A DNA stretch of 64,000 bases, taken from the NCBI GenBank assembly GCA_051362555.1, contig CM120649.1, forward strand, positions 4,898,001 through 4,962,000, in the 5' to 3' direction. The stretch comes from Lingula anatina. Taxonomy: Eukaryota > Animalia > Brachiopoda. The notes under the pieces are model-generated. The model made no database searches. It saw only the letters and a list, made by a program, of their open reading frames with translations, and was not told the origin of the DNA. This document shows positions 1,840-61,097 of the stretch, piece after piece; position 1 is the first letter of the stretch; every line of letters begins with the position of its first letter. Made by a program: the position numbers and the translations under genes.

Positions 1840-4800
1840 GGTATCACCTACCGGTTCCCCAGTAAAATTGTCTGGATACTTCTATCGGATTATCAAGTGA
1901 TTTGGAAATCTCCTCAGCGTTTTCCATTCTGCGCCCTGACGTCCAGAATTTGCTGAAACCGCCTTAAATTAAATAAAGATAAATAAACAAATAAATTAAA
2001 AATAATCAGAATTCACCGTTTCAGCTCGATTCCATGATTGCTTTTGATATGACTACGTCGAAGAACTAATCCCCCTCGGAGAAAATTCCACTGTCACAAT
2101 TTGTTATTATTATTAAATATTCAGCATTTATTATCCGTAGCAAATATTCGTTACTCAAATTATGTCCAAATAAATTACCCACTGCATAATAATATCTCAT
2201 GGAGTTGTTTCTTATCTTTTAATTCCTTTTTACATATTAATTGTGTTTGCATATCTTCCTATGTCTACATGTAATGGTAAAAATCCCTATCCGAAATTGA
2301 CTTAACATTAACTAATACACCCTTTAAAGTGGACGGCGTCCTTTCTGCTTCCTTTGTGAGACCATGAAACTGGCATCACTGTGGTCGTTGAAAGGTAGCA
2401 CAAGCATCGCTTTGGTTGCAAAATGAATGCTCAATGATCGGCCAGTTGTCGGCACGTGAAGTATGTTTTTTACTCACAAAAAGGGCCGCACTACGTGATG
2501 CAGAAAGGACGCCGTCCAGCGTAAAGGGGGCTTTAATACAGAGAGATACGTACCGCCGTTAAGATCCAAGTACTGTGTGACAAGGGCCAGTTCTCGCGCA
2601 CTTTCAATACTGATCAGGTCGGCACCGCCGTTAGCGAAGCAGTCTGCGCGTGCGTCAGCCCAAGACTTGGCCTGGCTTACGAAGCGGTAACAGTAGTCTC
2701 CCAACTTCACGAAACCATCGGGACAGCCTGGAAGTGACAGGTCACCAAAATAATGAACGGTTCATACGGTTTATTTCTACTGTACTAGTAAAAAGAAATG
2801 ATAATATGAAGTGTTTATGCTTGTGGACGTAAAAAAAATAATAAAATAATAATTGAAAACTAAATCTAAAATATGGAATTCAATTGATGTATGACATATT
2901 AATAAAAAAGGTAATAAAAATAAAAAAGAATAACTACTAATGAAGGGTTGTAAAAGTATGCCGGAATTGCCAAATGATTTTTGTGTTTTACATATTTTTG
3001 GTACTTTTGCATTTTATTCTTTATATTTACAAATCCTATTCAACGAATTACTGATGCAATTTCCGATATTGCTCGAGGTCTCGAGTTTTATCACAAATTC
3101 CAACAAATATTTTGCGAGATTTAGAGGAGAGAAGAGTCAGAAATAATGGCAGACTAGTGAGTTCAGGGTGGTACTGAACTAAAACTTGCATAATTTTCCC
3201 CCGAATATCTTTTCGGTTATTCACGCAACAGCAATTATTTAGTTATATTTTAATAGTTTTGTGTGTTACTTTTTGCTTGTAAAGACGAAATCCCCGATTA
3301 TAATAAAGTTTCACCTTTGCTGCTGAAAGGTTTGTTCCATCTCTCGGAGATTCTCGCGCATATTTTATGACGTAGTCTCAAAAGCCTCGTTTTAGGCTTT
3401 TTCGGAAAATGTTCAATCTTATCGTCTGCACACGTGTGAAGACTTATTTAAAAAATGCATAGGAGATGGTTTTAAATTTAAATAGTTTAGCTTTGATATT
3501 TTAATCGTGCTGTTTCTTATTTTTTTCAAAGTCTCAACTCATGGCCAATATTTAGTCGCTGCTGTGTGTGTGTCTTTAATTATATCATTTATCTTTTCAG
3601 TTTTATTCAGTTGTAAATGATCTATTTGCTTATTTACTTTTTTATTCAGTAGTATAATCAATCCCTCCCGTTTTTTATATAATTTGAATTAAGCACAAAA
3701 GAATAGCTGTCTGCGCAAGGTGAATTTGCATGAAATGCAAGAACTCGTTCAATAAAGCGGATTTAACATTGTTCAAGAATTAGGCTTTTTGAACTGAGAA
3801 ACGAAAAAAATAAGCCAGTCTATTCCGCTAAACAAATTCTTTTTGTATTTTGGAGCTCAGAAACCCCACTAATGATTGTCTATAGAAGTAGAAAGATCGG
3901 TAGGAATATGAGCTCCTCTTAAACGTTACCACAAAACTCCACAAACGCATAGCGACGCTGAAATTACCCAGTCACGATTCATACAGACACTTTAACGTGT
4001 ATATATAAAGCTATTAAATGTTATACAAAGCGATATAGTCCATTACGTTACAATGGTAACGCGTAGAGCAGCTCTAAGTTCAGTTAATAGCGATGTTTAT
4101 GTTTTTCAGGACACATTATGCGGAACATTTAACGTGCAATATTAAAGAATAGTATCATTTAGTCATGCAGGGTGTGTCTGCGGGCCTGCTGTAGACTATT
4201 CCTTAAAACCCCGATGACTCAAACGATGTAACCTTCCTAAATGTACAACGGGATCTGTTAGACAAAAGTAACATTAATTTAAATAAATAAGTAAATAATA
4301 AATAAAGTTTTACAATAAAAGACAACAACAACAATAATGGAAACGATAATGATGTCTTCTAAAAGTGGAAACTATATGAACGATTATAGCCCATAATTAA
4401 TATAATTGTTACATTTATTTAAAGGGTTATAGTCATCTCCAGAGCAATACCATTGTCGCATGAATTTGTTCCAATGAGTTAATGAAAAGACTCATCAAGA
4501 CGTGGTGAGTGGCATTTTATTTTCTTTGCAAAAGGCAACTTTGGCGACCAAGACCCATATCTATGTTAAAAACGATATTTGGCTTAAAACCTTACGTGAA
4601 AGAGGCCCCAGTCAGCGATCAAAACCTGCACCCGTGTTTTGTATCACGCGCTTAAACCGTGCTCGGTTAACCAGCCATCAAGGTTTAAATGCCTCATCCC
4701 TGGGAACATTAAGCCTCACATTTAAAGATTACCTATATTCAAAAAATGTGTAAGGTGCCTGCCTGTGGTTGACTGGCTGAGCACTTTGTGTTACTGATTC

Positions 4801-22344: not shown

Positions 22345-23851
22345 TTTTCAACGAAATCAGGCCTAAGGACAGGGAAGGCGCTTTTTAAACCAAATGTAAA
22401 ATTAAATGAATCATAAAAGCCCAGTCAATTTTAACTTTAACTTGAAGCACACGTGATTTTACAACTCTCATCTCCGTCGCAACACATGCAACTCACATTT
22501 ACAAACTTGACTCACGCTTCATGTTGTGTGTAAAATGTACATATCAAAGAAAAAAGTCATTTTTAAAACTTATACATTTTTATTATATGAGTTATATTAC
22601 ATTAACGCCATTTATATTTTTGCACATTCAAATTATAAAAGTTATAATATTTGACGTCACACAAGAATAAGTCTTATAAAAAGATGACGCCTTCTATGTT
22701 AAAACAGACATTTAGAAACAAAAAGACACACAAAAAAGACGTTCCCAACAGCCTTTTAATAAATAATCTACATATAATACATTGATAATATGTCCTGAAT
22801 TACAGATTTACAGATTTAAAAAAATTATACACTACGAATACAAAATCATTATTTAAGATACAGAAAAGTTTGAAGCAAAAGAAAGGTTTGAAGTTTGAAT
22901 TATCTAATACGTTTATACGCCGGCAGATCGAGGACAGAAAAAAGGGTGCACAGTACTGTCCCACCCACCCTCTCCCTCAAGATATATATAATTCTATGGC
23001 CACATTGTGTATACTGATATTACTGAATTCTACCATCTGATTAGGAAAATATGACTTAAAAGTATAAAAAACCCATGAAACCAAATTGTTGGAGAAGGAT
23101 GTCAAGTTTGCTTTTGGCTTCGTGATGTTATATTGTTGTGGCCTTCAAATAACGACGCTTCACTTTAACTTAGTATAATATATGAATAAATTCCACCTTC
23201 TGCCAGCAGAAGATTACATTAATAAATGCTACAATTTTTTTTTCATCTTTTGAAACAAAGTTATATTCAGTGTTGGAAAACGGTACAATAAGGTGACACG
23301 ACTGACGTCCTAGCACCGTATTAAGAAGGAATGGCGGTGATTTACTTAGCGAACTCATTAGAATGATGTTGTTATGATTCGACGAATGTGATTGGCCTAT
23401 GCTGCTCCCAGCTGAAATGATGATTTGTTGAATTGTCACTTGCTGGTTTATGATTGGTCAATCCTGCCAATGAGATGGACCTTAGCTGCCTTGCGTTGGA
23501 GAACGCGATTGGTATGATGCTGATGGATATCAATTCATATATGTCTGTCGTCATGCTCTGATATTGATTATACTAATCACCATAGCAGATGGAGTTTATC
23601 ATGAGATCAGGGGCATTTACCAGTCACATGATTTTGACTTGACGAACAATTCTTTTGGTCTCGCGATAGGTTCCTCACTCACGTGACTAATCACGCGATC
23701 CTTTGGCTCCTCAATGCGCCTGCGTAGAAATGACAACGTCACCTTTCCCAGCTCTTCCTAGAGATTACGGGAGATCGAGTTATTTGCTTGTGCTCGGACA
23801 ATGCTTTTCAGAAATAATAACCTAGACTGTGTGTAGGAATTGGCAATTACA

Positions 23852-24505
23852 CTACGTGCAAGGTAGACATTTGCAGCTCTTGATTTGTCTGTAGTTGATT
23901 CGGAATGTACCGAGTTCCAACACTTTGGTTTCGTAGTTGGCTACAGTACAACAGCACCCACGTTCGGATTCCATAAAACCGGATTCGTCCCCGCTGATGC
24001 TAACGGATGGTCTGAAAAGAAATATAAAAACGATTTGAGTTTTACAGTGGACACAATATCGATATTTGACAATGAAAATCAATAAAATGGCCTTATTAAA
24101 CCATAGAGAATATTGTATTTTGAATTTTATGCATTTATAATGATTTTATTGAAGCTATATATCTGGAATAAATGTCACGGCATTATGGATTGCCGTCAAC
24201 AATTTGGCAGAAGAAACAAACTGTTTAAATAATTTCTTGAAAGGCCCTTACATAGTTCATCAATTCATTTCATTAACCAAAAGTATGTAATGATTGTTCA
24301 ATATTTCAGTAATTTTATTGTTCATTTTTTCATTGTTAGCATTTGTGATGCGTATGGAGCTGTTATGGAAAGCATCAATGCTATTGGATTTATTTGAATC
24401 TTTTGGGTTTTAAAAAATGATCTGAAAAGTAAACAGCGCTATTTCAAACAGGAAAGTTTAAAGTGAATTCCATGTGCTTGAATTTGCATGACTGACGTGG
24501 TTCAG

Positions 24506-24548
<43 letters not shown>

Positions 24549-26950
24549 CGTGCCCCCAATTCCCACCTTTCCCGGCTCATACGCCTATATCAAAGAACAA
24601 CATGCAAAACGTATTTTTAAAAATTCCGTTTGTAGTAATGCTATTGGGCTACGTTATCTCACACACATACACAAACCATTCCGATAATTTACTGATTTAC
24701 TTTACAAAATCAGAGAGAATTGTATAAGAATGGTTTTTTTCCGTGTAATTCTTAAGGAACATTTATCAGGAGGATCGAGCGTGAAAAAGACTTATTTACG
24801 ATAGTCACGTTTGAAACACGAAACACGTCGAAGTAAATGAGGTTTAAGTGAATATACACATATCCTAAATCAAATCCAATCAAAACAATATATTACGCAC
24901 GTATAATTTACCTCCAGAAAACGGACCAGAATATCATACACGATGGCCATTTATCATATAAAGTTTTTTCAAAAGTAGAACATTTAAAGGACTTCAGCAG
25001 TGACTCATTTGTGATTGTTCCATTGCTCTCGTCATTAAATATTTGATATGGAATATATTCTTGTACACACGCCAATTAAATGCCACTGACACACGCATAT
25101 ACACAAAAGAATAACCAAAAGACCGCGTTTACTACAGATTGACGCATTGGTAAAGAGTTTGTTTAAAGAGTGAGTCAATGTACGCAATAAACTAAAATTA
25201 CGATAGAGTGTAACCGTCACAGAACAATACAATGCCATGACCCAAAACGTCAGATTGACATATACGCGTAATCCATGACCATGTTATTCTTCCTTGGGCA
25301 CGCGTATTGTTCATTTATTAACATAGCTGCTCCCTTCAAATTGTGTGTGGTTTAAACAAGAATGAATCTGCTATTGTTTTTTTAAACATATATATTTTGG
25401 TCTTTATTCAATCTTGAGTTGATTTGGGTTAGAATTATCGGATCTTTAAAATGCGTTAAAAGCCCTAGTATCTCAAATAGTGATCCAGAACATTAATGCC
25501 GCTAAAGAGACGCACGTAACGAAAGAGACCCTAGAAAAAGCAAACTCGATTAATTTGAAAAGTTAATTGCTTTCCCTATAATCACATATACATATATACA
25601 AAATGCAGAGAAACGATCCATTAGCCCGTATTTGAGGACTATGTTTCTGGTTTTTAAGGTACACTTCTGATGGAGACAGAGGCCAGTGTATTTTACTAGT
25701 GAATGTAAAAGAATCAGAAATAAAGAACAGATACGCTATATTCAGATATTGGGGGTGGCTATAAATGTTCAAATTTCCTGGAAAATTTTAATGTTTGCAA
25801 TGCAGAGCCCTCGCTGTCATTTTGTATTTAAACCCCGGCGCCTAAAACGAGTCACTCGTAATTATGCACTGTGTTCAGGTTATCGCGCACGTACGTACCC
25901 GTTGCTTTCGTTTACCCTAGTCGTTTGCGGTTTTCTCTCTCCAAGAGATTTTTATTTGAGCGTCCAAGCTTTCGAGGTAATGGCTGAAATGCCAAGACCG
26001 CCTTGGTACAGTGATTACAATAATTTGGCCCGGTATGGTTTATCGATTTACGTTCGGACCCTCCAAAGTTTTGAGACTAATTTATCCTTTCTTGAGTTAG
26101 AATCGGTGTGTTCATGGATAAGAAGGAACTTGGTGTGTATCTATTGTTGCCATCAGCATTTACATTGTCTCAGTGAATTGCAAGGCATTTTTTACCATTC
26201 AAGACATACCTGTACACAATGAGGAATCTAAATACTTGCTCTCGTAGTGCATGTTTGATGCGTTTCATTTAACTGTCAAATAATTTTGCCAATTTTAACC
26301 AATTTTAATGTAAAGAAAATAATACCAGTGAAACTCGTTGATAAAATCCCGAAGACAAAGAAGCTAAAGCTTTATTGGCATTATCAAAACAGCAATGCTT
26401 GTATGCCCATCATATTAATAATTCTTGCAGTGGTTTGTTTATTTTTCCGTGAACTCAGTTAACACTAACCTTGAATACTCACAATTTCGAGACTACTTGG
26501 TACCTTAACACCGAAACAACTTGTGGTTGTCCGACGCGTTAATTTGTGGTCGGAGACTTTAAGAATGCGTAAATTATGATCTTATTTGTTTTGTTTTCCT
26601 TTAAGTAAAACGTGGATTGTGAGGTAAAGAGTACTTTTCGTGGTCAGAGTTAGCAGACGTTTGTTTTTCTTTTGTGTCTGGGCGCATTACAAATGCACTG
26701 TATGCGCCTCAGTAATAACACACAAGCGCCTTGTTTATGTTTTTTTGCACATGATGCAATCCATTAGATATTATTGGAAGAGAGGCTATATATTTAAATA
26801 CTGTAACTGTTGGCTTCAGGAGTCTTCCAAAAGATTCAAACTAAAAACGCTCTCTTTTAAAAAAAAACAAAGTTGTGTCAGACATTGTTTTTATATAAGG
26901 TCACTTGTAAAAGCAGAGTATATAAAAAGCAAAAAATTATGTTTTAAAAT

Positions 26951-27009
<59 letters not shown>

Positions 27010-29121
27010 TCTCTCCCTTTTGTTATTCCGCGGTACAAATCCATGGTTCAAAACGCGTCTATTCTAGGAAACTTTTGTTTCTGTGTTTGCAAATACATAA
27101 AACAGTGTAATGCCACTTTTACACAGGTGGAGCTCTCTGTAGCGGTACTTCGACAAAACGGGTTTAATGCTCTCAGTGGAAGAAATCTGGACAAGGGGGA
27201 CGGTCCCATAATTAATCTTGGAACCGAAAAATCGGTCTTGCCTTAAAGATCGAAAATATAGGTCCACTTGAATGCAGCATACATGTAGATCAATTGTCAT
27301 CTACTAAAAAGAGAACTATTGACCTAAAATACCGACCGTTTTTTTGTTGGTTTCTTTGATTTTTAATTTTCATTTAATTCATTTATCGATTTATTTATTA
27401 AATCTTACTTTACTTTATTTATTTCATCGTTACAAAACAGGTCAAATAGTTTTATTTATACGACTGCAATCTATCTTGATCGAGTCACAGAATGATACAT
27501 ATATAAGGCTGCCGGTTGATAACACATTTCGGTTGAGTTTTAATTTAATTTAATTTAATTTAATTTAATTTAATTTAATTTAATTTAATTTTAATTTAAT
27601 TTAATTTTTTTCTGAAACAGTCCCTATTGTCGCAGAGAAAAGTACCCTGGTAAAAGCAACAATGCTATCTGCATTTAAAAGCGCGTAATATTACCTATAA
27701 CCATTGTGAAAACGTAAAATAAACACATCACATTGCTACTAATCGAAAACCCAGAGCGATTTCTAATTCGCACAATAGGGTACACCTTTTAATTAATTCA
27801 GTCTCAGTATAATGGCACACATACTTAAAGGTCAAGGTGAAAATTACCGAGCGTCTTCGTTCTATTTGTTTAACTGTCGGTAAGTGTTCGAGTTTTCGAG
27901 ATAATGTTTATATGACTGTTAGCGGATGACGAAGATGACGTGAGACTCGTCCATTTTTATGTGCATTTATACCCGAGATACGTCCGCATGATGCAGGTAC
28001 TAATTCTCTTTTTTATGTTTGTGCATAAATAATGGTTTCGGTTTTATTCATTTCAATTCGTCTCCTCGTTTGTCACATGTTTAAATACCGCCCGGAAAGG
28101 TATATCAATACATTCCACATCCCGAAGGTACATTTCTTACACATGATGTTTTTTTCATGTCAACATAGTCTACATGTTCATGTGGCATGTATTCAGTGTC
28201 TAAAATTTAAGATTTATAATAAGTTAAAGCAACCAAGCCCTTCACGGGGTAACATGTTTTAGCAACAAACCATGTATTAAATTGTTCCTTAGTTCAAGGT
28301 TTTCCTGGCCTTACAATTGTGATTAATCTTGTAATGCGTGAGGCAGATTTCAGTGTTATAAATCTCGATTAAAAATGGTCTCTGCCTGTATAAAATCATT
28401 TGACTCAAATTGACAAAAACAATTTCGGAGACCTAAATATTTAGGTGGCTTATGAAAGTCAGATAAAGGTAATGGCGGAGGGGGGATTAGATTAGGGTGT
28501 TTCGTAGAAATACCATAACTTTATCATATATGAGCATCTCATTACTGAGGGCGAATCAGAAGCCGAACTTGCAAACGGTATGGCAAGAATTTGTTTTGTG
28601 GGCATTTGGCTGTTCCAAACGCGGTTTTATGATTTAGAGACTTGCGTATTCTGTAATGATTTACAATAAAAAGCCGAAATTAATTACTTTTTCCACATAC
28701 ACTGTGTTGCACGTTGATGAAAACAATGCTTCTTCTAGGAATTCACGGCAAATCGTCAACTTCTCATTCCACAACAAAGAATGGAAACGATTATGAAACG
28801 ACGACATCAAAACAAGCATTTGACGTGAAGGGGTCGGGCGTTGTAAACAAAACTTGACAGCATGTCAACAGTATCTTCCGTATTTGTTGATTGATTTTAT
28901 TGACGGATATTGGTTTCGAACTCTTCTCGAGATTTCACTTACCGTATAAAGTATGACGCATCGACCGCACATTGGTTAAGTTCTATGTGGGTGACATATC
29001 CCCCCAGGTTGATGAACTTTCTGAACTGTCTCAATTGGCAGATGTCGTCTGCTCTGGCGTACCACACCGACGTCAAAGACATCAGCGTCAACCAATGGAG
29101 GAGAGGCTTTGTGGTATTCAT
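23852..29121 (-). CDS. Secreted cystine-knot hormone-like protein (GPA2/bursicon/CTCK-like, atypical cysteines), 112 aa
   Basis: Coding exons 28943-29121 (acceptor before 29134; donor CG|gtaagt) and 23852-24011 (ttttcag|A), joined by a phase-2 intron. Translation: MNTTKPLLHWLTLMSLTSVWYARA/DDICQLRQFRKFINLGGYVTHIELNQCAVDASYFIRPSVSISGDESGFMESERGCCCTVANYETKVLELGTFRINYRQIKSCKCLPCT*. Signal peptide with an A-x-A cleavage site, 8 Cys, terminal C-x-C-x-x-C. Confidence 0.82.
27540..27606. repeat. (TAATT)n microsatellite
   Basis: Seen directly in the sequence. Confidence 0.9.
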
Positions 29122-31464
29122 GGTAATTCTGTACCTAAAAGGCAATGGTATTTATTTATAAAATAACAAGGGAACTTCCCCGAACACCAAAGGAAAAGTC
29201 ATTGACAATAATAAGACAGACATCAAGAAACCCAGTTTGAATTGAAATTGGAATCACTTACTTCTCTCAAAACTCGGTGTCAATACAAATCAGTTAAGAC
29301 ATTGTAGATACCCTGTACACGTGAAATTTAGCCTCCTTCGTAAAGAAGATGCAATTGATACCACAACCCATAGTTACACCATTATAAAGATAGCGCTATC
29401 AGTTTTGGAGGGGGGGGGGTAGATCATTACACAGGTACACTATAGCCATCTGTTCTCTAATGCGAACGGGTCATCCACAATTAAGTCTATCCGTTGTCTT
29501 TTGATGGAGATCGTTTATTCTGCAAGGCATCGAGGCACTTTTAGAACACTTACTTCTGCCAACAGCTGCTTGTACACATAATGCAAACTATTGAGGACGT
29601 CGCTAGTCTTAAAAATGGCCAATTGAGGATGCATTATCTTTTAAAGCCACGGTAAAGAGAGTGGACAACAGAATCTATGTAATAAGAAATTGAGCGCAGG
29701 TGACTACCTACATTTAAAAAGACCTCAATTTATTTTGAGTGGTTAAGCATCTTTGCAATCACCTCTTGGCCTTATTGTTAAGGTAAATTGTATTTGACAG
29801 TAAAGAAGCGAGGTAGTTTTTCAAGTCACGGATTCGCAGGCATTTGAGAATAAGAACGGTTTTAACTTGCAGCACCGTGCTCTAAGTTCTCATAGATCAA
29901 CAAAACGACACTAAGGGTTATTTAATGTTAACACGGCTGTAAACCACTAAAATCATTAATGCGATTTGAAATCACTCATATTATCAATGACAGATGGTCT
30001 TTATTTGCATCAAGGTATAAAAACACCAGTTTATGTATGTATATCTATGGACCTTGATGCTTATTGCAGACGCCGCAGTGGCAAAACCAGGATCCAGAGA
30101 AGCTGGTGAAGTAGGATAAAAATTACCCCAGTCCTGTTCGTAATAGAAATTGGAGAGAGAAATGAAAACGAAATGGTGTTCAGTGCGACAGGGAGTGATT
30201 TATCTACTACTTGGCGCTCTATAACATCTCTCCGAGTACATCTTGCAAGCTGTACATGTATAAATGCGGCAGACAAAATACAAAACACAAACACCTGTGC
30301 ACTGTGCACCGTTTTTCCAATATAAAGCTTTTCGCAAATTCGTTTGTAGAGAATGCACAAATATGGTAATAAGTTAACATTGCTTACGTTAACGTCAACA
30401 GCAAATATTCTTGGACACACTTACTTACAAAAAAGTGAAGCAGATGCTTTCCTATACCACCCCCCTCAAAAAATAAAAAAAATAAAAAATAAAAATAAAA
30501 AAGAGAGACTGTGAAAAAAAGGTAAGAGTAAATAGATTAATCCTTGTTGACTTCAATTAATACTTAAAATATGTTCTAAAGAACTAAGCACGTGCGCATT
30601 TCAAAACATCGCCAAAATTCTAAAAAAAAAAGACATAGATTTTAGGTTGGGTTGATAACGTGATTCTTTTCATAGCTCCGCGCCAAAACAATAAACAATT
30701 CAGAAGAACTTAAGGAAGCTACACATAATATTCTCAGTCATAGTGGTCTTTCGCAAAAAATAAATATTTCTCTGTACAGGACCCTAGGCCCATTCCAAGG
30801 ATTACTCTCTCGTGATTTCTTGGGAAATAAGTCAAAAGATGACTAAAATAAATGCACACTGAAACGCATAACCATTTCTAATAAATCCCAGCTTCTAATA
30901 AAACTGACAAATATTGAAGAAAAAGGTGTTTCAGTAAATCACGGAAGTCTGTCTCACTTGCCCATTTAGTCATATTCGAATGGTTTCATAGGAATCGATA
31001 CAAAGGCGCTGCGAGAGATAGGAAGGTGTGTCCTAGAAAGCTTTTCTAAACTTCCCGTTTCATGACAAAATTAGTTAGAGATTTCCGTTTCAAGTTTAAT
31101 AACTTATAAGATAACAAGATTCTGTATTTGAATTGATACCAACATCCGTTATCACAAATCAAAGGTATTGGCAATGGCTTATCTTTAAAACAAGGCGTTT
31201 TTGTTGAGGAAGATCACTCATCGTCACAAAAAATCGTCTTTAATGCGTCAACAGGAATCGTACATTAATACCTACGATTTATATTCCTCTAAAAAGGACA
31301 ATCGTTCGCTCCGTCTTTCTATGAACATTTAATCGACGAAAAAGCGAAAAGTTTAGAAAAAATAGATCAAATTAAAATTAAACACTGGTTGTTAAATAGA
31401 AATAATGAAAACAAACTCATCATACCAAAATTCTCTAAGAGCATTTACAAAAATCAATACGTAC

Positions 31465-31609
31465 CTTAGAAATATTCCTGAATTCAGATAAACTGATATC
31501 TTCTGATACCGTAAACTTGTCTAATTTCACAAAATACTTTTTCCTATTCACAACTCGCATCAATCAGTATAAAATCTGAACCAAACACACACGCACATGG
31601 CTTTTTATA
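31465..31609 (-). promoter_or_regulatory. Putative TATA box, Inr and non-coding exon 1 of the cystine-knot gene
   Basis: TATAAAA on the minus strand at 31603-31609, TCAGAT Inr-like motif ~30 nt downstream (~31577), donor AAG|gtacgt at 31464. The next exon (29134) starts with a short UTR before the ATG. Confidence 0.55.
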
Positions 31610-32025
31610 TTTTTGTCCGCAGAACTGAATTATGGGCATTAATATCGCAACACATTTCTTGGTGTGCGAAAGGCCATTAATTACTATAAAATCACGTCGT
31701 ATTCCCCGTTATACGTAGTCCAATTAGACTGACAGCCGCTAACGTTATAGCGATTGTAATGGTCTCGTTTTAAGTGCAAAATCACACGGAGGGAGACGTT
31801 AGGAGTTGGTTAAAACACATGGGAGAGAGCAGGGTTAAACGTAATGGGCTTTAATGGCTTGGAGCTGCCACCGCAACAATAGACAGTGACTGGGAGCTCC
31901 CTTTGATTCCCATATGTTGCCTGGTTAAGGCTGCTAAGCGTGTGTGTGGCCGGGGGTCTCTTACACTGGCTTGCAGCATGCTCTGGTTTTCGTTGTTGCA
32001 CTGATTGCAAAATTTTGAGTCTGAT

Positions 32026-40547: not shown

Positions 40548-42310
40548 TCATTTCAAAAGAGGTCCGCAAAAGTGCACATGTTTGCTATCCGGATCTTCAC
40601 TGAATATAAAATCTAGATAGGCCGTCAGGAACTGCTCCCTACTTACATGCCCATCGTTATTCGTGTCTAAGGTTTTGAAGACCTCCGGAGAAAACTCCGT
40701 CGGGATGTTGTAGCCATAGAAAAAGGCAGCGTGCTCCTCTTGCGATATTTCCCCATCGTTGTTGAGGTCAATACCATCAAAGTGAATGCTGAATGTCTCA
40801 AAGAAGCTCTGACGTAATGTTGAGTTGACAGCCAACAGAAAGCGACGTTTTCCTTCCACATCCGGGATCTTGACAGTGTCCGAGTTGTCAGGGTCACCGC
40901 TGACGTAATACTTCCAAATATGCATGCGGTTGTCCATCAGTTTTTTGGCTTGTTCGTCTGCAAAAAAAAAAAAAAAAAAAAAAATTAAAATAAAAATTGA
41001 AAGAGAGGGAATGTACCGAAGATATTTATGTAAAAAATATATCAAAGAAATACATTATATAATCCAGTTCAGCAAACTGCATGTCAACACCATTGTCAAA
41101 TAAGTCGCACTTCATTTTTAAACCGAATACGCCACGTGCATGTGACTTATTTAGTTATCCATACTGGTATCTATTCTTGCAATTATAATTTATTTATTAA
41201 TTCATTCACTTAACATCTATTCATTCAGTGAAATTATTTTACATCATTAAAACATGTTTATATTTATTTATTAATTTGGTCACATTTATCATTTTACTTT
41301 TTTCCCATTATAATTACTTTAATATCGATTACCGTTAAGTTTCATAAATTCAGTGATCCGCCTGGCCTGCTGTTCAAAGTCACCCTTGCTCAGGTAGCCG
41401 TCGCGGTCGACATCTTGTCTGAAGAACCAAGTTCTCATTTTCTCCATCCATATTGGTGAACCCTTCACCTCCGGGTATTTAAACGGAAGCTGGAAATACA
41501 CCAATAATTGTGTACAAACAATATCCATATTGGCAATCCCGTCACTTCCGGGTATTTATACGGAAGCTGGAAATACATCAAAAATATATTTAACAGCTTT
41601 GTGCTTGAAATGACCCATGAAGATTTATTTGTCAATATCTATCGAAAAAATTAAGAGATATTTACCAGCCAAAAATTCGTCTGCTGACAGTCAGACCATC
41701 AAGGCCCTCATTTCCGTAATGAAGTCTGACTGTCAGCAAATGAAACCTTATTAGTCACAACGAAAATAGTGTACAAACAGTAATAAATTAAGCAGGAGGG
41801 GGCATGTGTCCCCCTTTTGCTCCTGGGGTATTGCTTTTCTCTTCTTATAGAAATACGGGCACCATGATAAAAAATTATGAATAACAGGCCCGTAGCCGGG
41901 GGGGGGGGGGGGGGGGGGGGAGGGGGAGGGGGGTTCGGGGGGTTCGGAAAAAACCCTTTTTGCCAGGAAAAGGTCCCCTCCGGGTAAAATTTTATGTAGG
42001 TACATGAAGGTTTCATGGTAAAAGGTCCACTTTTTCAGAAAAAGAACCACCCTTTTGAAATTTCTGGCTACGAGCCTGAATAACAATAACTAGATCCCAT
42101 GCTCTGAGAAGATACTTCTAACAGGCCCAAAATAAAAGAGACATTACACCCGGGATTTACCACGAACGGGTGAGCATTAAACCGCTCTTACAACAATATG
42201 CTAATTCCCACAGATTTAGACTTAGAAGAAGCTGAACGAATATCGTGTGATTAAATGCACATAGATCACGCGAGATTACCCTAGTTAAGAAACATTAAGC
42301 AAATTACCAT
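40548..42310 (-). CDS. Sarcoplasmic calcium-binding protein (SCP)/coelenterazine-binding-protein-like EF-hand protein, ~189 aa
   Basis: Firm exons 41333-41489 and 40548-40957 (phase 1). Candidate ATG-only exon 42308-42310 (ATG|gtaatt) is uncertain. Translation: LPFKYPEVKGSPIWMEKMRTWFFRQDVDRDGYLSKGDFEQQARR...DLNNDGEISQEE...DTNNDGHVSREQFLTAYLDFIFSEDPDSKHVHFCGPLLK*. EF-hands I, III and IV present, II degenerate; W..KM.T N-terminus and F.GPL C-terminus are typical of the SCP family. Confidence 0.9.
41885..42078. mobile_element. MITE family A, copy 2
   Basis: caggcccgtagcc ... ctggctacgagcctg flanked by aataa on both sides (5-bp TSD). Confidence 0.88.
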
Positions 42311-45300
42311 GTTTTATCCATCAGTTACACTCTAGGAACATAGTTACTTTTATTCACCTCGCCCAACAAGGCTTCAAACGACTGTGCGAATATAGAATAA
42401 CTACTTCAATTATTTGCGAAGCACAATATATCTCAAAATTATCTAAATAGTCAACTAATTCCAACTGAGAGAACAGTTGTTTTCAGTAGTGAAAGCACAG
42501 AGGGGAGAAGGGAATAATGATAACAACAACAACAATAATATTTTTATATAATTAAATAAATGAAATCTTAAATAAATATTAAGAGCGCGGGCGGCAAGTG
42601 ATTATTTCACATACACCATTATTTCATAATGCTAGCACAGTTCTTATTCACAGCAGCTGTTTATATCATCTAGCGTGACGTTCCTGGGTGCATTCGAAGT
42701 TTTCCTGGGTCATTAAACACGATTTATCAAGAGCTATGCAGTTCAACTCTCAATGTGAAATTTTCTTAGTCAAAGAAATATGAATTGCCGACTTCTGTTT
42801 AGTAAAACGCATACATCTTGAAGTTTTTCTCTTCTTTTGTTCGTTAAAATTTCTTACATCTAAAGACAACATCATCAATATTTTTAGGATAAATAATAAA
42901 ACGAGTATGGAAATGTTTTATACCATTCACAATTAGTTGATTTTAGGACTCACCTGGAGCTTTCGTGAACTATTATTATAATTATTATTACATGTATTAT
43001 TATTATTACTATTATTATTATTATTACAGCTCAGCTAATTTCAGCCGGACTAGTGACATTTTCAGGGCAAACAACCACAGAATCATTTCCTAAAATCACC
43101 TTCAGATAAAATCCCAGACATATGAAATCCTTGGACAGATGTTCGTAACGTTGAAATAGATCCTAGGTATAATGTCTGCTAATATGATCAGTATGGACCA
43201 ACACCTGGCCACTGTTCGTGATAGGAAGTGACCACCCTCCAGCAGCCGGTTAATTTAAACCAGCTGGGGCCAGTTTCAAATATGCATTAGACCAAAAGTC
43301 GGGCTATAAGGGATAACAAGTCTTCATATGAGATTCAAAATTCCATAATAAATACATTTAACCAACATATAGAAATATTATAAATTTCACGTTACTACCT
43401 AAATGGCGGTAAACGTGATCATTCTGAAACCTGTGCTTGCTATCGAACCAAGTGGACCTCCATAACAATCTCTTAAGAGATTATTACAAAAAAAAGTTAA
43501 AATGTGTGATAAGGGCTCTGTTCTAATATTCTGCCGGTACAGAAATAAATAAAACATAAAAAGTCTTATTCCTGAATATAAAATACTTATTCCCCTACTT
43601 TCACGTTGAACGGGGTTAGACATTTGGCCATAAGCTCCTTTCCCTTCAGGAAGCCTTATTTACAATTGTCTAGAATAACAGACGGACGACATTTATGAAA
43701 TGGTAATACATGTACTTGGTACCATTAAAAAAAGGCAGTAAATTAATTACAATACTCTCCAACGTTGAATTTCGTCCTTCCCAATTTGCAGTGTATGTTT
43801 CTGGAACAGTCATACGATATCAATAAGTGATGGGTTGATAATCGATATCAGTTGTGATAACCAGTACATATTGGCAGAATATAGCTGTAGCAAAACATGT
43901 GCGATGTGGGTCAACAGCTGACCGCTGTCCGTAAACACCAGTGACCTCCGCACAGCAGGTCAAGTGAACAGACCATATATAAAACGCCCTTCTGTTAATA
44001 ATGCAGACGACCATTGGTTCTATTTCACTGCGTCAGTTCTGCACTAGGCTGACCTGACGCATATAATCTTGACTTTTTATCGATACTGTCATACTTGGAG
44101 TTATGAAAATGGGGATATATAACAGATACACTTCATATACAGATCGCAGATGTTAAAAAACTCTAGCTATATTTCAAGGGTGTTGCGAGTATGTTTATAT
44201 TGTGGTAACTTACAGCGGCTTAAAATGCACATTTAAGTCAGTCTTATTTCGTTTCTGTTTCAACCGGAGGTTATGTTATTTTTGTTTTAAAACGTTTACT
44301 AACCCATAAGCAATGACAGAATATACCTTTGCTATTATACATCATGTAAAATGTATGAAGTCCAATATGCGCACATTTAAAAATGTAACGTCAATATGAA
44401 ACAATGGACAGGGCGCGCAAAGTTCACCCAATCGGCGGAGTATCACAATACTCGGTGTTTGAATGCCAGTAAACATATACGGTTCGCACTACAACGGACT
44501 TTGTTTTCCAAAATGAAATGTGCACAAGCATTTTAAAGTACAACAAGTTATATGAAAAGGTCATTTAAACAAGGTCAGAGTCAGCCATGCGTACTGAATT
44601 CTTAGTCGTAAATTATATTCATGACATGAAGGACTGACACCATGTGTAGGACATATCCATTTGTTTTCTTGATGTAGTTCTTTTACAACTTCATCGTATG
44701 TTAATCATCTGTAATGCAATTTAAGAAAACGGGCCCACTTTGGGCTACGTGTACGTGTATTTGTCCTAAAGGCCAACTGTTTCACAAATATAGGCATTTA
44801 CTGGCCGCAAATCTGATAGATGCACGTTCAGTCATTAACCAAACGAATAATTATTTATTTCAATATATTATTATTATTATTATTATTTGACGATGACACT
44901 AACATGTATGAACTGGTGCTTTCAGTATGACAAAATGAGGGATTTTTGATGCAACCCCTGCTCCACCCCCCCCTCAAACCCCCTTCACCTCTAGGTGAGC
45001 TCCCCCCTTCACTCCGCGTTTTCTACTCCCCCCCCCCCCCACCCTTTCCGCCTTTGCTTACAAAATCACGTTTTTAAACTTAATTAACTTTTCACAGACC
45101 TGTAAACTGGGTACAGGATTACGGTACAATGCATCTTTGAACCTAAGCCTGTGTCATTTCCTTTCCTTTTTATTAAGACTGAGGAAAGATTTAAATCCTC
45201 CATTTTGTTTTGAAAGGGGGACCACCCCACAACCCGGTGACTACCTCCTCCTTGTAATCAACATGTATTAAAGTAACATAATAAATAATACTCTCTAAAG

Positions 45301-46374
45301 AAGACGGTTTCGAATATATATGTATATACTCAAAATATATAATCTTTCTTGTCGTGACCATATCTTAGATAACAAAGCACTTAAACGAAATCAAGCCAAG
45401 GGACTATATTTAAAGTGCTGATAAATTAAGACACAAGTCAGTTACTATCTACCTCGTGGAGTCGCTCGGCCTCCGTGCTAAACGGCTGAACCAGTCTCAG
45501 GTGCGGTCGAAGCTGCGTAATCCGCAAAAGTCGAGACATTTTTGACTGTCAAAAGTTCGTTCAAGTCCAGTCCCCGGTCGAAGCAAATAGGTCAAGGTTA
45601 TGGAGGCGTGGTGAAATTGACCAATGAAAATCACCCCTGTAAATAAGACTCTTTGTCTTTTTCAGCGATGACCTAGTTAGATGAATACCAGCTGTTGTTT
45701 TATTGCACGTGCGACCTTGAATAAATAACAGCGACCTAATGCGTTGCGCCGTGAGGTTTATTTGAGTTCAATAGCTGCTACTGACGGGCTAAAAAGAGCC
45801 TCCTTAGTGCGAAGTATCGAAATCGCTACACCGCCATCTTTTTGTATTGACGTGGCTCGCCATTGTGCAAGGCGCACTTGTTGCTACCCAAAGGAGAGGG
45901 TTATGTAACACATCGCTGCGTTAACAGGCTGACTTTTCAACGGTCAAGAGTGCGTTGTGCCGTCTCACCAAGCACAATCGATGAGAGCGGTTGTTACAAT
46001 TACGTTAGATAGATTTATTTTGCAATAAAACGTTAATAAGAAATATTATATGAATAAATATCATGATATATTAATGTTTTAACCACAGCCCATTTAACAT
46101 TGAGCGGTATACTGTCTGCATGCCAGTGAACCCTGAGAGATAGACAAAAAATAATCTGGCAATAACGTAAACTACTCATCCTTAGTAGGCCTACACGTAC
46201 ATGTAGAACCCTCGCGCTCACCGCGACCAATTAATTTTAAGTTAAAACTTAATTATCATTATTTGTAAAAATAGGAGTCGAGAGCCGCATACACACCTAC
46301 CCGTTTATACGCCCTATATATAATTGAAATTTCAGACAAACATCTCTTTGTAAACTTTTCTAAAAACTTAGAAC

Positions 46375-47117: not shown

Positions 47118-50049
<2,932 letters not shown>

Positions 50050-52387: not shown

Positions 52388-55726
<3,339 letters not shown>

Positions 55727-58262: not shown

Positions 58263-58465
58263 TTAGGGAATGGACGTATCAAATGTTGATGGCTCCGTAT
58301 CTGTTGTGATTTTTGCACTGCCATGGTAACAACATCGATCCTGAAGCTTGCGTACCCATGGTAACAATAGAATGCTCCCGCCGGCAAGGAACACTAATGA
58401 GCCAGTGATATAAAACGTTACATCATAAGACCCGGTTAAATCGTACAAACTGCCTAAAATAAAAC

Positions 58466-58506
<41 letters not shown>

Positions 58507-61097
58507 GTAATAATAATAACTAGAAAAGCACTCCGAGAGCGCAGACAAACAGGGGTAAAAACATAACCTCCTCGGCGGAGGTATTAATAATTATAATAAT
58601 AGTTAACGTAAATATTTACATGTAGATGAACACCTTCAAAGAAAAAAAAAGATATCTTCAGACATGTGCTCAAAAAAATGGTCTACAGAAAACCAAACTA
58701 TACAATATGACGTTTCTGTTAGCTGACATACCTCCTGCTGACAACAGTAGGGAACCCAACCCTGTGGCCAACATGTGCAGTCCATAGGAAGGTCCGAGTT
58801 TCTCAATGCCGACTAAATCTCTCAGAACAACCGGGACCAGAGAGACAGTAGCGCCTGTAAGAAGAGCAGAAGTACATGCTAGAATCTCGTGTTGTTAGAT
58901 TGGTTTGCGCCAAGGCTTTAATAAAGTAGTGTATAGAACTACGATACATGCACAAAAAGAAAGACGTTCTTAATTGTTATAAATCACTAGGTTTCAACAT
59001 CTACTGGATATTCATAGTTATATTATAATGTCAACACAAAAAAGGCTATATGACACATTAACAGAGATCTCACAAGATACATTTATTATTATTGCACAGT
59101 TTCAGTTTGTTTGTTTTATAACTTATATCTTACCAACTGTCAATCCATAGAAAGCGCATACGGTGGCAATCTCGCCGTACCCCATCATGAAAGGCAATAT
59201 GGAGACCATGACGCCTCCAACTATTACACTTGTCCCAACCATATAGCGCCTGTTAGCGCACCGGAAGTCTGCAGAAAGACCCATCACGACTCGCGCCACT
59301 GTGTTAGCAATTCCTACAATGGACACCAGGAACGCTGCGTTGTTCACTTCTATCCCCTTGGCTCGTGCGGCATCTGGTATATACGTGTGAGGAACCACGA
59401 CTCCTACTTTGAACATTAACATGCAAACTAGCCACACGACAACATCAGCTTCTCTTAATAAGGGAATGTGGATCAAGTTCTTTAAGGACATATCCGTTTT
59501 GTCACTGAATTTTAAGTTCTGTTTTGTCTCATTTTCCTCGTTGCTCTTTAATGTAGGTGGAAAGAACAGCATACTCAAGCCAATCCCTGAGAGTGAAAGC
59601 CCAACCAGTACGAGAAGAGTGTACCTCCAAGTAATACTTTCAATGAGAAGTTCTAAGAGGGGTGCCATCGAAAATGTCCCAACGCCAGATCCACACATTG
59701 CGACGCCCATGGCTAGGCTTTTCTTCTTCTCAAAATGATGCTGAACGGACACAATGCTTGGGAAATACATCAGTCCGAAACCGAGGCCGGTCATAACCCC
59801 ATATGAAATATACAGCATGGACAAGTTTGGCGCCAAGAAACTCATCCCAAATCCCCATGCAGCGAGAATAGAACCAGTGATTCCAACAGCCCGGTGTCCA
59901 AATTTCTCAGATAGGGCGCTTGCTATTGGACCTAAAAATATCCAATCAGAAAGCTTCATTTAATTTTTTCATACCCTGTACTTGCTTAAGGCTATAATCG
60001 TTCAAACAACATTTTGTATTGCAAAACATTAGATATTTTATTTTGTAATAGATAGATCGGTCGTTATGTTGGTATTACTGTGAATCTGTGATATAAAATC
60101 CCTTCACAGGCATTGATGGCATAAAACATCGACATGGACATCAGGTGGGCCTCTAGCTATCAATTAAAAAGTAATTTTATTAATTAATTTTTGGGAGACG
60201 TGAAAAAACTGCTTACCGAGCATACCGTACCTATGATTAAGCTCACAGCTATCTGAATGGAGCCAACCCAAGAAGTCGCCAACTTGCTTTCTTCAAATTC
60301 GTTCAGCAGGGCGATGTAGAGCACGCCGAAAGAGTACATAATACCGTCTACGATGAAGTGAATGAAAAAGGACGCCAATACTACCAACCAGTCGATGCAA
60401 CGGTCGGTCGGAACTTTGGAGTTTGTGTCCACTGACGGTCGTCTCGAGTCTATTACACTCCCTATAGACTTCGCCGACTTACAGCTCAGCCTGCGTTGTT
60501 TATCTGTAAAAACACAGTGTAAATTAAACTATTTAAGTACAGGCATGTTGCATCTGACTATTCAAACAATATAACCTACCAGCTTTCAGGACCATGTTTA
60601 ATTTTCACCATTAATTAATTCTAGGTTCAAATGCGAAAATTTCACTGTCATCTTGGAGTCCTTTTCAAAACACGCTTGACGTGCTACTTTTGGAACACTA
60701 ATTGTCATTCCCATTAATGTCCCCTTAAAATGAATCCAGTTTAGACGCATTAATGCTGGCAGGGTCTGCTTTATCATCAACATTGTAAGGCGAACATTAC
60801 AGTACGTTATGATTCCTTATATTCAGTGTACTGTCAGGCTTGCCCCCCCCCCCCCCTTCAAAAAAAAAATTAAAATAAATAAAAAACCTCCTTATTTACT
60901 ATTTATGTATTACCTGAGTGTGTACTCTCTCCTTCGGTGCTTCTCTCGGTTAATTCTCTACGCTTTTCAGAATCATGTCCTTCTTCAACACTATCAGGGT
61001 TGTCATCGTATATTGTATCGTTATTAAACCCGCCATTGGTATACCCATCTTGTTCTGGAATTTCTAGTACTGCGGTATTCGGGGATGCGCCAAACAT
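58263..61097 (-). CDS. SLC16/monocarboxylate-transporter-family MFS protein, ~522 aa
   Basis: Exons 60914-61097 (acceptor before 61126; further upstream exon not located), 60231-60503, 59134-59931, 58732-58854, 58263-58453 (1569 nt, all phase 1). Motifs: WLVVLASFFIHFIVDGIMYSFGVLY, GPIASALSEKFGHRAV, YGVMTGLGFGLMYFPSIVSVQHHFEKKKSLAMGVAMCGSGVG, LYDLTGSY. Confidence 0.93.
58518..58583. mobile_element. Internally deleted non-autonomous Helitron/Helentron-like element (ends only)
   Basis: aactagaaaagcactccgagagcgcagac joined to aaaacataacctcctcggcggaggta (terminal hairpin acctcc-tcggc-ggaggt). Resembles a recalled aquatic-animal repeat terminus; family call tentative. Confidence 0.5.

Follow-up and report, generated by a model that had tools for sequence, protein, structure and literature searches.

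The set of bilaterian ligands resembling the glycoprotein hormones (GPH), namely GPA2, GPB5, bursicon alpha and bursicon beta, together with the BMP antagonists, is treated as known. The genes for alpha and beta subunits usually occur as linked pairs. Every type A LGR ligand and several ligands of type B LGRs are proteins of this kind, according to the accessible portion of PMC9910494. The six cysteines of the knot are called invariant in the available part of PMC4079206, and the Gly is called conserved in all 8-residue rings (PMC3224965). In PMC4079206, bursicon, GPH, NDP (Norrin) and NBL1 are described as having a signal peptide followed by the domain without a pro-region and then a short tail, as against Gremlin and SOSD. 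Here, we describe a gene of Lingula anatina encoding an eight-Cys protein that very probably belongs to this cystine-knot-hormone lineage.

Structure and expression of the Lingula gene

On the minus strand of the window (the whole 64-kb stretch of Lingula DNA analyzed), exons 29134-28943 and 24011-23852 join to encode a 112-aa protein with eight Cys, located at residues 28, 51, 79, 80, 81, 106, 108 and 111. The ATG is at 29121, a donor GT follows 28943, an acceptor AG precedes 24011, and the stop codon ends at 23852. The sequence of a neighboring gene has its match in Lingula anatina. The features of the locus are as follows.

28943..29134, minus strand: exon A, comprising a short 5′ UTR, ATG 29121, the predicted signal peptide, Cys I and Cys II, and a phase-2 donor (basis: sequence, RNA reads of runs X1 and X2, N-terminal halves of homologues)
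29050..29121, minus strand: predicted signal peptide of ~24 aa with a putative cleavage site (hydropathy peak at residues 7–21; both homologues have a hydrophobic N-terminus at the same place)
24012..28942, minus strand: intron of 4931 nt, GT-AG, phase 2, placed ten codons after Cys II (sequence; read depth 0 in 14 wholly intronic bins)
23852..24011, minus strand: coding part of exon B, comprising loop 2, CCC, finger 3, CxCxxC and the stop TAG (phmmer matches)
23330..23851, minus strand: 3′ UTR, extending at least to ~23330 (reads of X1 and X2 in bins 23028-23655; signal scan)
31465..31577, minus strand: candidate 5′ non-coding exon (the only AG/GTRMG donor between 29134 and 36000)
31603..31609, minus strand: candidate TATA box (Inr-like TCAGAT 32 nt downstream)

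Seven of nine available RNA runs were compared with the locus, three of them (X4, X7 and X9) with positions 27700-31900 only. Run X1 gave 6 reads and run X2 gave 4; X4 gave one stray, partly fitting read, and X3, X5, X7 and X9 gave 0, too little for a test. On a stretch containing exon A only, one X1 read fitted only in part, with ~24 letters left over; once exon B was included, all 6 reads fitted wholly, the bin of exon B took up ~25 letters, and those of the intron were empty. The depths in X2 fit both mates of a single pair spanning the junction. Thus, the read depths of two RNA runs fit the splice junction 28943/24011, which was derived by depth arithmetic, the table of joints (needing 3 reads per run) being empty. 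All 10 reads of X1 and X2 had the orientation expected for minus-strand RNA. Expression was very low, with 10 reads in the ~25 million records of these two runs. As far as these few reads go, they bear out the spliced transcript proposed in the preliminary description.

A phmmer search with exon B alone detected two proteins named ‘uncharacterized’, XP_074657344.1 of the nemertean Tubulanus (E 4.7e-7) and XP_014676254.1 of the priapulid Priapulus (E 1.9e-5). The third and last match, an ORF of 450 aa, was discarded as repetitive and lacking the Cys pattern. When the N-terminal halves of the two homologues were scored against the 2154 six-frame peptides of the window, exon A was the best for both (summed score, 131 vs 68 for the runner-up), and none of 5000 shuffles reached the real score for either homologue. 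Since these homologues had been retrieved with exon B only and their N-terminal halves nevertheless selected exon A, the pairing of the two exons is not due to chance. The two coding exons and their phase-2 joining, as originally described, are therefore confirmed by the sequence, the homologue N-terminal halves and the read depths. The Lingula gene is real, spliced and weakly expressed. A word-index search with exon B among proteins of 53–170 aa returned 0 candidates, and the window’s own protein seems to be unannotated at that size.

Upstream, an Inr located at +28 to +34 of TATAWAW was found at 4 of 196 such sites in the window. An ATG in the candidate 5′ exon is out of frame and begins an ORF of 84 codons overlapping the main start; the exon received 0 reads in the seven RNA runs, at a depth too low to test the exon. 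Downstream of the stop codon, the signal scan placed candidate poly(A) signals at 22760 and 22584.

An eight-cysteine family in three phyla

In the Lingula, Tubulanus and Priapulus proteins, the gaps between successive Cys were 22/22/23, 27, 0, 0, 24, 1 and 2, so that the whole eight-Cys spacing recurs in Tubulanus and Priapulus. Identity among the mature chains was 36–41%, and their charges were near neutral (+1, +4 and -2). All three have a hydrophobic N-terminus, as judged by hydropathy and alignment, and are predicted to be secreted; the signal peptide leads directly into the domain, without a pro-region, and the tail is short. The residues after Cys II are AVDA, AVVA and LSID. The six knot Cys with an 8-residue ring (CxGxC plus CxC) do not occur in any of the three, all of which are without Cys III of the knot and without the ring Gly. 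The L1-L3 pair and knot Cys III were thus correctly identified as lost, first in Lingula, and their absence is conserved in three phyla. The CCC cluster is also common to all members. In contrast, the ‘PS’ motif, thought to have been retained from the hormones, is not conserved, and reads PT in Tubulanus and SE in Priapulus.

A word-based profile search yielded no further member (2/31 candidates), and the family comprises three members so far. Matches of metagenome loci L001 and L002 to a 27-aa stretch were rejected as chance; the frame of L001 has stops just upstream and no CxCxxC. None of the members matched a Pfam cystine-knot family, and PDB sequence searches gave no match for them; hits to Rheb, integrase and 7tm_1 in these Pfam and PDB searches were dismissed as spurious. 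No description of the eight-Cys family was found in the literature searched, and its motifs are absent from the searchable part of the supplement to a dedicated nemertean and brachiopod survey covering Lingula and Tubulanus. The novelty originally suggested has held, in that no named family with this Cys pattern turned up.

The proteins are secreted, small and Cys-rich, and growth-factor knots occur in venoms (PMC12203953), features that a toxin, pheromone or structural secreted protein reusing the fold would share. However, a fast-evolving, abundant secretion would not be expected to show a single copy in the window, very low read numbers and a spacing that stays fixed across Brachiopoda, Nemertea and Priapulida. 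Because the family spans three phyla and is not an oddity of one species, the toxin- or pheromone-like product considered in the preliminary description is very improbable. The two-finger toxin (Argos-like) family was also set aside, since none of these taxa is mentioned in the available portion of PMC12514838 and our fold searches retrieved no such fold.

Predicted fold and comparison with known families

AlphaFold models were obtained for the two orthologues, Tubulanus and Priapulus, rather than for the window’s spliced protein, from a 4-row alignment (pLDDT, 76 and 73). Two beta-hairpin fingers and loop 2 were predicted for both. In VIA-align searches of 48,161 chains, ranks 1–32 and 1–34 for the two models were all cystine-knot growth factors. 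The top match of both was C. elegans alpha2 (8enb_A), with a Z of 6.2, below the VIA caution line of 8, and an rmsd of 2.3 Å over 64 and 2.8 Å over 66 residues; Norrin reached Z 5.4–5.5 in these searches. The best Foldseek rows were Norrin, PRDC, alpha2 and Gremlin, with E-values of 0.07–0.1. Judged by the aligned end points, the first Cys corresponds to C8 of alpha2 and to C39 of Norrin, and the last one to C90 and C131, respectively; Cys I, II, IV, V, VI and the terminal Cys are predicted to stand in the GPA2/Norrin register. In an ESM feature search, the first unnamed cluster for the Priapulus protein was ‘Partner of bursicon’ (0.91, 187/256 features), an Atlas cluster of 52 members lacking a Pfam family, and the rows shown for the Tubulanus protein were all of GPH, Norrin, bursicon or DAN types (0.76–0.84). 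The two-finger cystine-knot topology expected of such a hormone is accordingly the predicted fold of both orthologues.

The missing CxGxC, the lack of a Pfam or PDB sequence match and the moderate Z might suggest an unrelated beta-hairpin protein forced into this fold by the predictor. Such convergence is highly unlikely, considering that two separately folded orthologues retrieved the same list of more than 30 entries from one superfamily with the Cys registers in place, and that the ESM search agrees with the cystine-knot superfamily.

GPA2, represented by C. elegans alpha2 (PDB 8ENB chain A), is the top structural match and shares with the family the signal peptide followed by the domain, an even Cys count, and Cys I, Cys II, CC and CxCxxC in register. 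The combination that characterizes GPA2 (10 Cys, CxGxC and the L1-L3 bond) is not found in the family, which has 8 Cys, no CxGxC, no L1-L3 bond and an extra Cys before CC. Of the two loops described as shortened, finger 3 is indeed shorter by four (Cys IV–V gap of 24 residues vs 28 in GPA2), whereas finger 1 is not clearly so (Cys I–II gap of 22–23 vs 23 in invertebrate GPA2). Bursicon alpha and beta likewise have three Cys clustered before finger 3 and a terminal CxCxxC, but they carry 11 Cys with CxGxC and CxCC; the family has 8 with CCC and no CxGxC, a longer loop 2, and a finger 1 much shorter than that of beta. The extra Cys is present as described, although it may be the old Cys of bursicon/Norrin CxCC and not a new one. 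We rejected the idea that the gene is the missing brachiopod bursicon, because Tubulanus has a family member and canonical bursicon side by side.

Norrin resembles the family in fold (Z 5.4–5.9) and in the register of the first and last Cys. Of its 11 Cys (39, 55, 65, 69, 93, 95, 96, 110, 126, 128 and 131), the family lacks equivalents of three, C55, C69 and C110; it has CCC and not CxCC, and its fingers are shorter by 3 and 5 residues. The DAN-family BMP antagonists (Gremlin, PRDC and NBL1) also matched in fold (Z 4.9–5.7), but the eight-Cys family has no CxGxC and no N-terminal extension, and PF03045 was not matched at E up to 5–10 by the Tubulanus or Priapulus protein or by either exon. It is possible, though not the reading we favor, that the family is the diverged equivalent, in invertebrates, of Norrin or the DAN family, a secreted and possibly disulfide-linked dimer modulating Wnt/Frizzled or BMP signaling in development and not a hormone, with CCC representing Norrin CxCC minus one residue. 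Norrin ranked 1–2 in Foldseek and lay within 1 Z unit of the VIA top, and 27 residues separate Cys II from the cluster’s first Cys in all three members and in Norrin (C65 to C93, in the accessible part of PMC3828517), vs 21–22 in phoronid and nemertean bursicons, counted by eye. However, VIA Z differences below 1 are ties, so that the fold search cannot rank families; the three interchain bonds of Norrin would leave Cys VI unpaired, and the mature charge is near neutral, without the N-terminal extension of the Gremlin/SOSD type.

A canonical GPA2, distinct from the family member, is present in Lingula (PMC8557429, in the part available), and canonical bursicon alpha (partial) and beta exist in Tubulanus as separate genes. 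For this reason the eight-Cys family is, as judged from sequence, a separate paralogue family, and it is likely to be as old as the protostomes.

Proposed role and significance

We propose that this spliced, weakly expressed gene belongs to a three-phylum family of predicted secreted proteins with a GPH/bursicon/Norrin-like fold; that its product acts as a dimeric ligand of a type A or type B LGR (leucine-rich-repeat GPCR) is our leading proposal, at about even odds. In the proposed wiring, the I-IV and II-V bonds would be kept, and the simplest partner for the orphaned Cys VI would be the first Cys of CCC, leaving the second to bond the terminal Cys, as in the 55-90 bond of C. elegans alpha2. 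Each of the eight Cys would then have a partner in its own chain, a large loop would take the place of the 8-residue ring, and the Gly of the ring would be dispensable. Dimerization may occur via the loop-2 strands, as in the relatives, with formation of a homodimer or with another partner.

Several observations weigh against the proposed explanation. Unlike the usual linked alpha/beta pairs, no partner subunit gene was found in the 64-kb window, where none of 7 six-frame CxGxC matches had hormone-like surroundings, nor was there a second HMM match at E <0.3. No single fold score is strong, and sequence matches to Pfam and PDB are lacking. Finally, Norrin and the DAN proteins are just as close by fold, and their targets are Frizzled and BMPs. 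Alternatively, the protein may be a decoy or alternative subunit that, by pairing with a bursicon chain, GPA2 or GPB5, alters or blocks their signaling without a receptor of its own. Its GPA2-like length, terminal CxCxxC, even Cys count and ESM likeness to partner of bursicon are consistent with this role, and Lingula, with one GPA2 and two GPB5 chains (accessible text of PMC8557429), has room for a second alpha-type partner. Nonetheless, we consider it unlikely, because no linked partner lies in the window and because brachiopods, reported in that text to be without bursicon, retain the gene, indicating that bursicon is not an obligatory partner.

The eight-Cys family is likely to be a very old lineage of animal signaling proteins that has been overlooked, perhaps because every hormone profile anchors on CxGxC. 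Neuropeptide surveys thus have a blind spot, the family having been missed, as far as the searchable supplement goes, by a survey that covered Lingula and Tubulanus. The family offers a concrete ligand candidate for unassigned LGRs, and, as a natural experiment, could show whether fold and signaling require the knot ring. Conserved between Spiralia and Ecdysozoa, it breaks the rule of the invariant knot and represents a candidate signaling system for the protostome ancestor.

Structure and transcription of the gene

The studied locus, on the minus strand of the window, is a real gene with two coding exons and a candidate exon upstream.

Features of the gene (window positions)
29134-28943, minus strand: exon A; acceptor before 29134, ATG at 29121, donor after 28943
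24011-23852, minus strand: exon B, coding part; acceptor before 24011, TAG ending at 23852
31560 onward for its upstream ATG, minus strand: candidate 5' exon; TATA box, with an Inr-like site 32 nt downstream

The preliminary description had joined two exons about 4.9 kb apart in phase 2, and this join holds: exons A and B are separated by a 4931-nt GT-AG intron of phase 2, and together they encode a 112-aa product whose residues 7-21 are hydrophobic and whose cysteines lie at 28, 51, 79, 80, 81, 106, 108 and 111.

Seven of nine available same-species RNA runs were compared with the locus. In run X1, region 27700-31900 gave one exon-A pair, one mate of which diverged for about 24 letters; on 22400-31800, all six reads fitted over their full length, with about 25 letters of depth in the bin containing the exon-B start and 0 in the intron. 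Run X2 gave four reads on 22400-31800, with depths of 100 letters in the bin holding 51 exon-A bases and 69 in the bin holding 42 exon-B bases, which is consistent with both mates of one pair spanning the junction. All ten X1 and X2 reads had minus-strand RNA orientation. Since junctions were listed from a threshold of three reads per run, and none was listed for exons A and B, we infer the predicted splice over 28943/24011 from read depth, and the depths of both runs fit it. X4 contained one stray read, and X3, X5, X7 and X9 had none and are uninformative on expression. Expression in the sampled runs is very low.

The proposed upstream exon with its TATA/Inr remains a candidate. Its donor is the only AG/GTRMG donor between 29134 and 36000, and no reads fell there in the runs examined, in which expression is very low. 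If real, the exon adds an out-of-frame ATG whose 84-codon ORF runs over the main start, and translation of the main ORF would then be damped.

Homologues and age of the family

A search with exon B alone against 1.84 billion representatives gave three matches at E <= 0.001, the third of which, a repetitive ORF, was dropped as a homologue. The others are XP_074657344.1 (here P0001; Tubulanus polymorphus, 109 aa) and XP_014676254.1 (P0003; Priapulus caudatus, 124 aa), both annotated as 'uncharacterized' and each a cluster of one. Because their N-terminal halves were absent from the query, these halves provide a test of the exon join: exon A was the best of 2154 six-frame window peptides (score 131 vs 68 for the next), and its match lay above 5000 of 5000 shuffles for each homologue. 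The mature chains of the three members share 36/88, 33/88 and 32/86 residues, and the gaps between their cysteines are 22, 22 and 23 for the first, then 27, 0, 0, 24, 1 and 2. A word-based profile search revealed no further members, and no candidate among proteins of 53-170 aa shared exon B words. Brachiopoda and Nemertea belong to Spiralia, and Priapulida to Ecdysozoa. Having members in both, the eight-Cys family likely dates to the protostome ancestor. A set of three is too small for losses to be mapped. The family is real, apparently unnamed, and conserved across protostomes.

No description of the family was found in searches of the full-text literature outside subscription journals, and a full-text search found no papers mentioning the accessions or gene ids of the Tubulanus and Priapulus members. 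Five-letter motifs of the three proteins had no relevant match in the accessible parts of the PMC8557429, PMC6425005 and PMC6660194 supplements, where line breaks may conceal a motif, and no such family appears in the accessible parts of PMC4772807, PMC6188537, PMC6660194, PMC4341566, PMC12514838 and PMC11863921. The same Priapulus proteome was mined with bursicon and GPA2 profiles in bioRxiv 10.1101/2024.07.20.604414; the family was not found in its available text, outside which Table 1 and Figure S6 might list XP_014676254. Within this literature, the earlier inference that the protein is undescribed stands.

Predicted fold and cysteine wiring

Fold models were made for the orthologues P0001 (pLDDT 76.4, pTM 0.62) and P0003 (pLDDT 73.1, pTM 0.60), each from a 4-row alignment, and not for the spliced window protein. 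Apart from the signal helix at the start, both are all-beta. In a comparison with 48,161 solved chains, cystine-knot growth factors took every one of ranks 1-32 for P0001 and 1-34 for P0003, in agreement with the two-finger fold proposed earlier. The top match of both models was the GPA2-type subunit alpha2 of C. elegans (Z 6.2; rmsd 2.3 A over 64 residues for one and 2.8 A over 66 for the other), followed within about 1 Z unit by Norrin, Gremlin and NBL1. Foldseek returned the same families at E 0.07-0.2, and no match at E 0.001 for either model. By the aligned ranges, the first family cysteine falls on C8 of alpha2 and C39 of Norrin, and the last one on their C90 and C131 (numbering from the accessible parts of PMC9910494 and PMC3828517, respectively). 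ESM features linked P0001, at 0.76-0.84 and as a lead only, to clusters of GPH, Norrin, bursicon and DAN, and P0003 to 'Partner of bursicon' at 0.91, among unnamed clusters. The latter ESM Atlas cluster has 52 members, mostly arthropod, with no common Pfam family; these may represent genuine bursicon beta or else the eight-Cys family in arthropods. Sequence searches against Pfam and the PDB came back empty. The fold evidence is an agreement of methods, no score being strong by itself, and the models predict a fold of the cystine-knot-hormone type that lacks the canonical knot ring.

In alpha2, the knot bonds are 8-56, 32-85 and 36-87, and the others are 22-70 and 55-90 (PMC9910494). Cys I, II, IV, V and VI and the 55/90 pair are predicted to be kept in the family, which has no counterpart of the 22-70 pair or of Cys III and carries one extra cysteine ahead of CC. 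The C2/C7 pair described earlier as lost is this 22-70 equivalent. The reported loss of CxGxC was likewise confirmed: the second cysteine is followed by AVDA, AVVA or LSID, and both Cys III and the ring Gly are gone, as expected if no tight ring needs threading. In the accessible parts of the respective papers, the six knot cysteines are termed invariant (PMC4079206), the Gly is termed conserved in all 8-residue rings, and loss of the GPH-alpha L1-L3 bond accompanies shorter loops (PMC3224965). In Lingula GPA2, counted by eye on the accessible supplement sequences, the I-II, II-IV and IV-V gaps are 23, 30 and 28, whereas those of the window protein are 22, 29 and 24.

The simplest closed intrachain wiring would be 28-81, 51-106, 79-108 and 80-111, and the predicted P0001 hairpin (strands 77-90 and 93-106) would bring CCC beside the terminal cysteine group. 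CCC may be CxCC minus one residue, since the 27 residues from Cys II to its first cysteine equal those from Cys II to C93 in Norrin (PMC3828517). Norrin-like interchain bonds would leave Cys VI unpaired, and a Norrin/DAN-like modulator is a rather doubtful reading of the protein.

Identity and putative function

The accessible supplement of PMC8557429 gives a single canonical GPA2 and two GPB5 for Lingula, and for Tubulanus a partial bursicon alpha and a bursicon beta, both canonical; because these proteins are separate, a disguised GPA2 or bursicon was ruled out. The main text of that paper, where accessible, reports bursicon absent from brachiopods. The family fell outside GPA2, bursicon, Norrin, DAN and the strict knot definition alike. 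No partner subunit gene was found within the 64-kb window, which also contains the following.

Neighbouring genes (window positions)
2474-2761, minus strand: C-type lectin domain exon (PF00059, E 0.0025, below the curated cut-off)
40551-45539, minus strand: sarcoplasmic calcium-binding protein gene, three exons, matching Lingula anatina P0009 (one exon 100% identical over 130 aa; 97-98% over the three), a match that assigns the window to a lingulid brachiopod
47118-49641 and 54758-55189, minus strand: fibrinogen C-terminal domain exon (PF00147, E 1e-29) with a similar pair of coiled-coil exons lying upstream, a layout that points to fibrinogen-related genes in tandem
58263-60528, minus strand: MFS_1 transporter exons, monocarboxylate type (PF07690, E 3e-24)

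A decoy subunit is less probable still than a Norrin/DAN-like modulator. The top-ranked reading, to which we give an even chance, is that the eight-Cys protein would act as a putative secreted dimeric ligand directed at a leucine-rich-repeat receptor (LGR). The family would come as a surprise to neuropeptide and cystine-knot specialists, and is directly testable.
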